Below, in pieces: positions 52,573 to 53,388 of a stretch of 64,000 nucleotides of DNA. Position numbers and translations under genes: made by a program. Position 1 is the first letter of the stretch. Each line of letters opens with the position of its first letter. Origin of the DNA: Escherichia phage vB_Eco_T-01; sequence record PQ438391.1. One strand, given 5' to 3'. Under the pieces are notes generated by a model that was not told the origin of the DNA, made no database searches, and worked only from the letters and a program-made list of their open reading frames with translations.

Positions 52573-52912
52573 AATTTTGGTTTTATGTATAGGATTAATT
52601 TCATTTTCTGCTTCTGCGTCAGCAGATACATCATATACTGAAATTAGAGAATATGTAAACCGCACTGCGGCAGATTATTGTGGGAAAAATAAAGCATGCC
52701 AAGCTGAATTTGCACAGAAATTAATATATGCATATAAAGACGGAGAAAGAGATAAATCAAGCAGATACAAAAACGATACATTATTAAAACGATATGCTAA
52801 AAAGTGGAATACCTTAGAATGTTCAGTTGCGGAGGAGAAAGATAAAGCCGCTTGTCATTCAATGGTTGACCGTTTGGTAGATTCTTATAATCGAGGATTG
52901 AGTACTAGATGA
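52565..52912 (+). CDS. small secreted Cys-containing protein (T4 vs position)
   Basis: 115 aa, signal peptide 'MTKILVLCIGLISFSASASA', four Cys. Confidence 0.5.
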   Translation: MTKILVLCIGLISFSASASADTSYTEIREYVNRTAADYCGKNKACQAEFAQKLIYAYKDGERDKSSRYKNDTLLKRYAKKWNTLECSVAEEKDKAACHSMVDRLVDSYNRGLSTR

Positions 52913-53388
52913 TTGTAAAATATATCAAGGGCGATATTGTCGCCCTCTTTCTTGAAGGTAATATTATTGCGCACGGATGCAATTGTTTTCATACAATGGG
53001 CAGTGGTGTAGCTGGTCAATTAGCAAGAGCCTATCCCAAAATTTTAGAAATAGATAAAACCACTACTGAGTACGGTTCTCGTGATAAATTAGGCGATATG
53101 TCTATTGTTTTTAAACATAAACCTAATGGTTTTGGCATATGTTATAACTTGTATACGCAATACGAACCAGGTCCTAATCTTGATTATGGTGCTTTAGTAA
53201 ACTGCATGATAGAATTAAATCTACAGGCAGAAACCCTTTTGTTTAAACCAGTAATTTACATTCCACGTATAGGTTGTGGTATTGCTGGCGGCGATTGGGA
53301 TAAAGTTTCTAAATTAATCGACATGTTTACTCCTGATATTGATTTAATAGTGGTGGATTATGAAAGTACATTACCCGCATCCGTTTGA
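52909..53388 (+). CDS. macro domain protein (ADP-ribose binding/processing)
   Basis: 'GDIVAL..NIIAHGCNCFHTMGSGVAGQ' and 'IPRIGCGIAGGDW' match macrodomain glycine-rich motifs. Confidence 0.75.
   Translation: MIVKYIKGDIVALFLEGNIIAHGCNCFHTMGSGVAGQLARAYPKILEIDKTTTEYGSRDKLGDMSIVFKHKPNGFGICYNLYTQYEPGPNLDYGALVNCMIELNLQAETLLFKPVIYIPRIGCGIAGGDWDKVSKLIDMFTPDIDLIVVDYESTLPASV

Follow-up and report, generated by a model that had tools for sequence, protein, structure and literature searches.

The open reading frame (ORF) at positions 52909 to 53388 of the DNA analyzed here is tk.4 (renamed adfM), a known gene that is present in this genome as a divergent allele. The window, a 64,000-nucleotide stretch of Escherichia phage vB_Eco_T-01 (PQ438391.1), had initially been annotated with the proposal that this ORF encodes a macrodomain that erases ADP-ribosylation. 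The eraser idea is right and is already published, as gene, domain and anti-DarTG2 role are all known. What we add is modest: the assignment of the active site to a glutamine-type class, the exchange of tk.4 alleles between genera, and a hairpin within the gene. Macrodomains with which phages reverse the ADP-ribosylation of DNA form an emerging class of anti-defense enzymes, of which tk.4/adfM is a member.

The functional evidence comes from T4. Growth of a transposon library on a host carrying DarTG2 depleted one T4 gene only, tk.4 (bioRxiv 10.1101/2025.11.20.689424, November 2025). A clean tk.4 knockout rendered T4 sensitive to DarTG2 and the gene was renamed adfM, with the evidence consisting of genetics from one preprint (bioRxiv 10.1101/2025.11.20.689424). 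T4 lacking adfA and adfN stays resistant to DarTG2 (PMC11825919), which predicts a further factor such as tk.4. The suggestion in the initial annotation that the protein erases host-inflicted ADP-ribosylation, for example by DarT, fits these genetics, and the experiment that it proposed, in which a deletion mutant is plated on hosts with or without DarTG, is already published for T4 (bioRxiv 10.1101/2025.11.20.689424).

The T4 record describes tk.4 as "phosphatase; contains A1pp phosphatase motif", a label that is about 20 years old, and PHROGs likewise labels the family 'phosphatase'. A1pp is the former name of the macro domain. An A1pp match was already reported for tk.4 orthologues in a 2006 comparative paper (PMC1524935). 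Several GenBank records of the window allele carry the name "macro domain protein", and the JGI label for relatives is 'O-acetyl-ADP-ribose deacetylase'.

The tk.4 locus and its macrodomain

The window belongs to a Tequatrovirus, and the 3.3 kb surrounding the ORF are 98-99% identical to many T4-like genomes, with Shigella phage Phaginator as the best match (98.8%). The macrodomain ORF is the positional orthologue of T4 tk.4, with 58% amino acid identity over 155 aa. Using Pfam and PHROG matches and comparison with the T4 record, we established the gene order as regB (51558), vs.1 (52027), vs (52565), tk.4 (52909), tk.3 (53360), tk.2, a 57-aa ORF, tk.1 and tk (54149). The features of this locus are as follows.

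51502..51530 (+): sigma-70/T4-early-like promoter match upstream of regB (TTTACT-17-TATAAT, extended TG); a match to the consensus only
52027..52572 (+): vs.1, SLT-domain protein (Pfam SLT) with a signal-like N-terminus
52565..52912 (+): vs (valyl-tRNA synthetase modifier), 115 aa; phrog_1256, 99.4% nucleotide identity to T4 vs
52893..52912 (+): Shine-Dalgarno-like GAGGA (52893-52897) and GAG (52900-52902), followed by an ATGA stop/start overlap (52909-52912), read from the sequence
52909..53388 (+): tk.4/adfM coding sequence, single-domain macrodomain of 159 aa, called from the ORF, Pfam, synteny and AlphaFold2
53360..53572 (+): tk.3 (DUF7202), overlapping the 3′ end of tk.4 by 29 nt where T4 has an ATGA overlap

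The initial annotation described ATGA coupling of the gene to two secreted proteins upstream. Such an overlap does join vs to the macrodomain ORF at 52909-52912, and an ATGA or GTGA overlap is found at the tk.4 start in 27 of 29 T4-like loci. The two upstream genes, vs.1 and vs, instead share an 8-nt overlap (ATGACTAA, 52565-52572). That both proteins are secreted is a prediction from their Sec-signal-like N-termini (MRKALLAGLLAISMMAHS and MTKILVLCIGLISFSASASA). The N-terminus of Vs (MTKILVLCIGLISFSASASA) resembles a textbook Sec signal, which is odd for a reputed modifier of a cytoplasmic enzyme, and that of the SLT-domain protein Vs.1 is also Sec-signal-like.

At the other end of the gene, tk.4 and tk.3 overlap by 29 nt in different frames because of a 13-nt difference from T4. 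The overlap region (53360-53388) includes the extra tail of the window allele (residues 156-159), which is predicted to be disordered. Further downstream, the tk.2-tk.1 interval (53573-54140) is likewise replaced relative to T4, at 26-49% nucleotide identity, and contains an additional 57-aa ORF (53784-53957, phrog_3452) that is absent from T4.

A promoter scan returned 17 sigma-70-like sites as opposed to 23.7 in shuffled sequence, and with fewer sites than expected the scan is uninformative save for the site upstream of regB. By its match to the consensus, this site is the leading promoter candidate from which the regB-vs.1-vs-tk.4 run would be transcribed.

The ORF itself reads from an ATG on the plus strand through 159 codons and contains both motifs quoted in the initial annotation, NIIAHGCNCFHTMGSGVAGQ at residues 18-37 and IPRIGCGIAGGDW at residues 118-130. 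The macrodomain assignment made there is borne out by a Pfam profile, structure prediction and a fold search. The Pfam Macro profile PF01661 matches the ORF with E=6.2e-8 and 33.1 bits over profile positions 2-117 of 118; since the curated gathering score is 22, a chance match is excluded. An AlphaFold2 model built with 69 homologues has a mean pLDDT of 93.6 and a pTM of 0.89 and shows the macrodomain order of strands and helices, so the predicted structure is a three-layer alpha/beta/alpha macro fold. When this model was searched against the PDB with Foldseek, the top match was TARG1 (E=3e-10, TM 0.82 normalized to target), followed by Poa1p, BT1257, the DarG proteins of Thermus (Taq) and Mycobacterium (Mtb) and a DarTG complex, with viral MacroD-type domains appearing later. 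All of the top 50 matches were macrodomains or enzymes designed on macrodomain-like scaffolds. A family profile searched against PDB sequences gave BT1257 (6e-20), TARG1 (9e-17) and SCO6735 (5e-16), and then Poa1p (2e-15), Mtb DarG (6e-12) and Taq DarG (4e-10). The PADLOC DarG model matched Tk.4 over its macrodomain part only (positions 3-144 of 329). Together these matches show that the window Tk.4 is a stand-alone macrodomain of the ALC1-like class, with a predicted ADP-ribose cleft between two glycine-rich loops that are both conserved.

Homologues of Tk.4 are present in about 2,776 of 50,697 phage records, including many groups outside the T4-like phages. The Pelagimonas phthalicica chromosome (locus L084, 6001-6459) carries a 40%-identical homologue that stands alone among housekeeping genes. 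We considered whether this homologue is a DarT-linked antitoxin and rejected the idea, as it has no DarT-like or other toxin gene as a neighbor and lies in no obvious prophage.

A glutamine-type active site

To place the active-site residues, we aligned the window Tk.4 using MAFFT with T4 Tk.4, BT1257, SCO6735, ALC1, TARG1, Mtb and Taq DarG, and PhiKZ gp104; the chain sequences other than those of the two Tk.4 proteins were recovered from HMMER outputs. The positions of interest are listed below.

52933..52935 (+): codon of Asp9 in an IKGD motif, aligned with Asp20 in the KGD motif of TARG1
52972..53007 (+): loop 1, H22-G23-C24-N25-C26 ... M30-G31-S32-G33, placed by the alignment
53158..53160 (+): codon of Gln84, at the position of TARG1 K84, DarG K80 and SCO6735 Gln85 (profile alignment and MAFFT)
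53263..53292 (+): phosphate-binding loop P119-R-I-G-C-G-I-A-G-G128, which fits PRIGCGLAGG of SCO6735/BT1257

The catalytic position is Gln in the window Tk.4, T4 Tk.4 and SCO6735/BT1257, and Lys in TARG1, both DarG proteins and PhiKZ gp104. At the position of TARG1 Asp125, the window has Ala126, T4 has Gly, SCO6735/BT1257 have Ala, and DarG and PhiKZ gp104 have Gly. The phosphate loops read PRIGCGIAGG in the window, PRIGCGLAGG in SCO6735/BT1257, PRIGCGLDRL in TARG1 and PPLGxGNGGL in DarG. In loop 1, N25 corresponds to SCO6735 Asn27 and PhiKZ gp104 Asn23, and H22 corresponds to SCO6735 His24 and Poa1p His23. By alignment, then, the active site of the window Tk.4 is of the Gln type found in SCO6735/BT1257 and lacks the catalytic Lys or Asp.

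These residues are retained across the family. In a set of 80 viral sequences that reaches down to 35% identity, 78 have Gln84, all 80 have Asn25 and 72 have His22; Gln84 was left out of the retrieval patterns that fetched these loci. None of 69 database homologues departs from Gln84 or Asn25. The Asp9 position, aligned with a TARG1 residue that we take to be an adenine contact, is more variable (D in 53/80 and N in 26/80 family members). The length of the mobile loop also varies in this 80-member phage family, with 10 residues in 40 members and 13 in 33.

SCO6735 hydrolyzes thymidine-linked ADP-ribose on DNA and rescues cells from DarT, the Q85A variant is inactive and N27S almost abolishes activity (PMC9411070). 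Enzymes of this type act on proteins too (PMC9411070).

Allele exchange, the intragenic hairpin and the start codon

Comparison of the window with T4 revealed an abrupt change in identity within tk.4. The two relevant features are:

52928..52946 (+): intragenic terminator-like hairpin identified by folding, with an 8-bp stem, a 3-nt loop and -12.6 kcal/mol, followed by CUUUCUU; codons 7-13
52947..53410 (+): segment diverged from T4 (~60% nucleotide identity) in a 99%-identical backbone, from comparison with T4

Up to 52946 the window matches T4 at 100%, and from there to roughly 53410 at ~60%. The genes on either side are close to their T4 counterparts: regB at 98.9% nucleotide identity (dS 0.04), vs.1 at 99.5% (dS 0.03), vs at 99.4% (dS 0.03) and tk at 97.4% (dS 0.12). 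The value for tk.4 is 65.0%, with a saturated dS of 1.66 and a dN of 0.39. The resulting dN/dS of ~0.2 between the two alleles shows purifying selection on a functional Tk.4 protein, and together with the saturated dS it points to an old allele that entered a T4-like backbone by recombination. On the same two values we rejected recent rapid evolution of the gene.

The window allele is not confined to close relatives of T4. We found it in loci L005-L008 (1501-1977) of phages of ~170.5 kb, at 91-94% protein and 75-91% DNA identity, where the flanking proteins are far less similar to those of the window (Vs 44-46%, RegB 59-60% and Tk 71-72% identical). We infer that these phages are Dhakavirus-like; GenBank relatives of the window allele at 88-90% nucleotide identity include phage dhaeg. 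An allele shared at 91-94% despite flanks that are 44-72% identical indicates that an anti-defense allele has passed from one genus to another. The window type (at least 90% identity) is found in 318 records of the phage collection, the T4 type in 224, and a third type that is 80-90% identical to the T4 allele in 159. Roughly half of sequenced Tequatrovirus genomes carry an allele that is only 58% identical to the one tested, and the T4 result cannot simply be carried over to them.

The left recombination junction relative to T4 coincides with the 3′ edge of the hairpin, which is annotated as 'terminator' in some GenBank records (e.g. LR215723). Across 27 alleles, 77.8% of cells are paired, compared with 70.9±1.2 in shuffles. 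Double-change cells number 12, as against 4.6±1.8 for shuffled sequences and no more than 7 for slid registers. The hairpin is kept in about 15/27 alleles, with some compensatory changes, and is absent from about 12 lineages. In an 81-nt context its signal is weak (z = -1.86).

Many GenBank records cut tk.4 to Met30 and so lose part of the active site. In LR215723 (L004 788-1180), P0002 and SHFML-type records, the coding sequence starts at Met30 and yields 130 aa, with the loss of strand 1 and the H22/N25 loop (window 52909-52995). We considered Met30 as the true start and rejected it, given that residues 1-29 show conservation even among distant homologues (G8, H22, N25), fold confidently in the model as two strands, and hold part of the active site. 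Judging from this conservation and the predicted structure, the 159-aa form of Tk.4 is the real one.

Proposed function and comparison with known systems

We propose, with a probability of about 0.72, that Tk.4/AdfM is an early-made macrodomain of the Gln type that hydrolyzes ADP-ribose placed by DarT2 off the thymidines of single-stranded phage DNA. Tk.4 would be made early in infection from the regB-vs.1-vs-tk.4 run. Host DarT2-type toxins would put ADP-ribose on thymidines of single-stranded phage DNA and thereby block replication. In Tk.4, this ADP-ribose would dock in the cleft formed by loop 1 (H22..N25..G33) and the phosphate loop (P119-G128), where Asn25 would hold Gln84 in position. 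Hydrolysis of the ribose-thymine bond would then give ADP-ribose and clean DNA, making Tk.4 an orphan antitoxin. A Gln-type site without Lys or Asp suggests that the chemistry is probably water- or substrate-assisted, unlike the lysine chemistry of DarG and TARG1. Hydrolysis of dT-ADP-ribose by Tk.4 is proposed by analogy with SCO6735 and PhiKZ gp104, and by analogy with T4 Tk.4 we infer that the 58%-identical window allele would act in the same way and through hydrolysis. Among the points that count against this proposal, the DNA-positioning residues Lys34 and Lys89 of SCO6735 are not conserved in the window Tk.4, and the nearest sequence relatives include Poa1p, a phosphatase.

The last point bears on whether Tk.4 could be a small-molecule enzyme, an ADP-ribose-1''-phosphate phosphatase or O-acetyl-ADP-ribose deacetylase that serves the turnover of nucleotide or NAD metabolites as opposed to anti-defense. 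The 'phosphatase' labels in T4 RefSeq and PHROGs and the JGI deacetylase label agree with such a role, as does the place of yeast Poa1p among the closest sequence and fold relatives, with which Tk.4 shares an H-x-C-N-C motif. However, the labels were transferred by homology, the phenotype of the T4 knockout is confined to DarTG2, and many macrodomains have weak phosphatase- or deacetylase-type activity in vitro that is not their biological function, all of which makes a metabolic function quite improbable. The initial annotation also entertained an eraser of self-inflicted marks. Tk.4 would then reverse the modification of RNA polymerase, S1 and EF-Tu by Alt, ModA and ModB and so set the timing of infection. 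T4-like phages have three ADP-ribosyltransferases, and an eraser would make their marks reversible. The chemistry speaks against this part of the earlier proposal, since Alt and Mod enzymes modify arginine, and removal of arginine-linked ADP-ribose needs ARH/DraG-type enzymes. To our knowledge no macrodomain cleaves the arginine linkage, as opposed to ester-, phosphate- and thymine-linked ADP-ribose, which macrodomains do cleave. The transferase genes are also unlinked to tk.4, and homologues occur in many phage groups that are not T4-like and as one stand-alone bacterial chromosomal gene. As the initial annotation stated, Alt, ModA and ModB are absent from the window: tblastn searches of the window with T4 ModA, ModB, Alt (first 501 aa) and AdfN returned nothing significant, and the best E for the three transferases was 0.57. 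We regard a self-eraser as extremely unlikely.

Protection from DarTG2 could also be mainly non-catalytic, with Tk.4 binding and inhibiting DarT2 or shielding ADP-ribosylated DNA, and with allele divergence reflecting a match to toxin variants. Even when catalytically dead, SCO6735, DarG and TARG1 inhibit DarT in vitro, SCO6735 most strongly (PMC9411070), so protection need not depend on hydrolysis, and several deeply diverged alleles circulate and cross genera. Even so, relatives with as little as 35% identity keep the same active-site residues, an argument for selection on catalysis, and Tk.4 is without the C-terminal toxin-binding domain of DarG. Moreover, divergence falls mostly in helices and the beta3-beta4 region, which at a dN/dS of ~0.2 reads as drift and not as diversifying selection, leaving only a small chance that binding is the main activity. 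Similarly doubtful is the idea that the window allele counters a different ADP-ribosylating defense from that of the T4 allele, such as RNA- or protein-directed toxins or one that modifies another base. The identity of merely 58% to the tested T4 allele and the activity of SCO6735-type enzymes on proteins would allow for this, but the catalytic loops are the same in both alleles and the data give no pointer to another substrate. We further speculate, while considering it unlikely as a whole, that tk.4/adfM is a polymorphic host-range determinant in which the diverged allele types (that of the window and Dhakavirus, that of T4, and the third type), circulating in Tequatrovirus and moving between genera, act against different DarT2 variants or ADP-ribosylating toxins, partly through a non-catalytic toxin-binding surface, with Gln chemistry distinct from that of DarG and a hairpin at codons 7-13 that attenuates expression.

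Among known systems, T4 Tk.4 is the closest to the window protein. The two share their position between vs and tk.3, their length class and a single macrodomain, and their catalytic loops are identical, with Gln84, Asn25 and His22 among the residues in common. They differ in that protein identity is 58% and DNA identity 65% within 99%-identical flanks, the C-terminal tail of the window protein is different, and the window allele is common to Dhakavirus-like phages and not to T4. The SCO6735/BT1257 proteins have in common with the window Tk.4 the Gln at the catalytic position, the Asn and His of loop 1, the PRIGCG(L/I)AGG loop and an orphan single domain, and among proteins of solved structure BT1257 is the closest in sequence (profile E=6e-20). 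Identity to the window Tk.4 is, however, 27-29%, and the mobile loop of SCO6735/BT1257 is ~5-6 residues longer and contains Lys89/Lys93, with the loop of the window Tk.4 being 6 shorter. SCO6735 Lys34 is replaced by Ser32 and Val25 by Gly23.

DarG, the DarTG2 antitoxin (PDB 5M31, 5M3I, 7OMU), resembles the window Tk.4 in fold class, and the substrate, dT-linked ADP-ribose on ssDNA, is presumably the same. In contrast, DarG has a catalytic lysine (Lys80 in Taq DarG) in an FPTK motif where the window Tk.4 has Gln84 in LYTQ, and its phosphate loop is PPLGxGNGG as opposed to PRIGCG, at ~20-22% identity overall. The window Tk.4 also has neither the C-terminal DarT-binding domain nor the darT operon of DarG, its neighbors being vs and tk.3. 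Human TARG1/OARD1, first among the structural matches at TM 0.82, has a mobile loop as short as that of the window Tk.4, but its catalytic dyad Lys84/Asp125 is Gln84/Ala126 in the window Tk.4. For Poa1p, in which His23 and Ser30 are mutated in 6LFS and 6LFT, the His is conserved as His22 and the Ser is replaced by Thr29, and the C-terminal half aligns poorly.

PhiKZ gp104, which was independently named "AdfM", strips ADP-ribose placed by DarT2 off DNA in vitro (PMC13309987, Cell Rep 2026). Like Tk.4, it is an orphan phage macrodomain that counters DarTG2 and it keeps the loop 1 Asn. It is nonetheless of the DarG type, with Lys in an FPTK motif and Mtb DarG as its best PDB match (E=9e-25), and it is barely alignable with the window Tk.4 (BLAST E=0.004). 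For this reason we rejected its biochemistry as direct evidence for the Tk.4 family. With gp104 of the DarG type (Lys) and T4 Tk.4 of the SCO6735 type (Gln), the two 'AdfM' proteins fall into different subclasses. The AdfM of T-even phages thus appears to be an SCO6735-type enzyme and not a copy of DarG, unlike its PhiKZ namesake, which bears on the design of mutants and on thinking about inhibitors.
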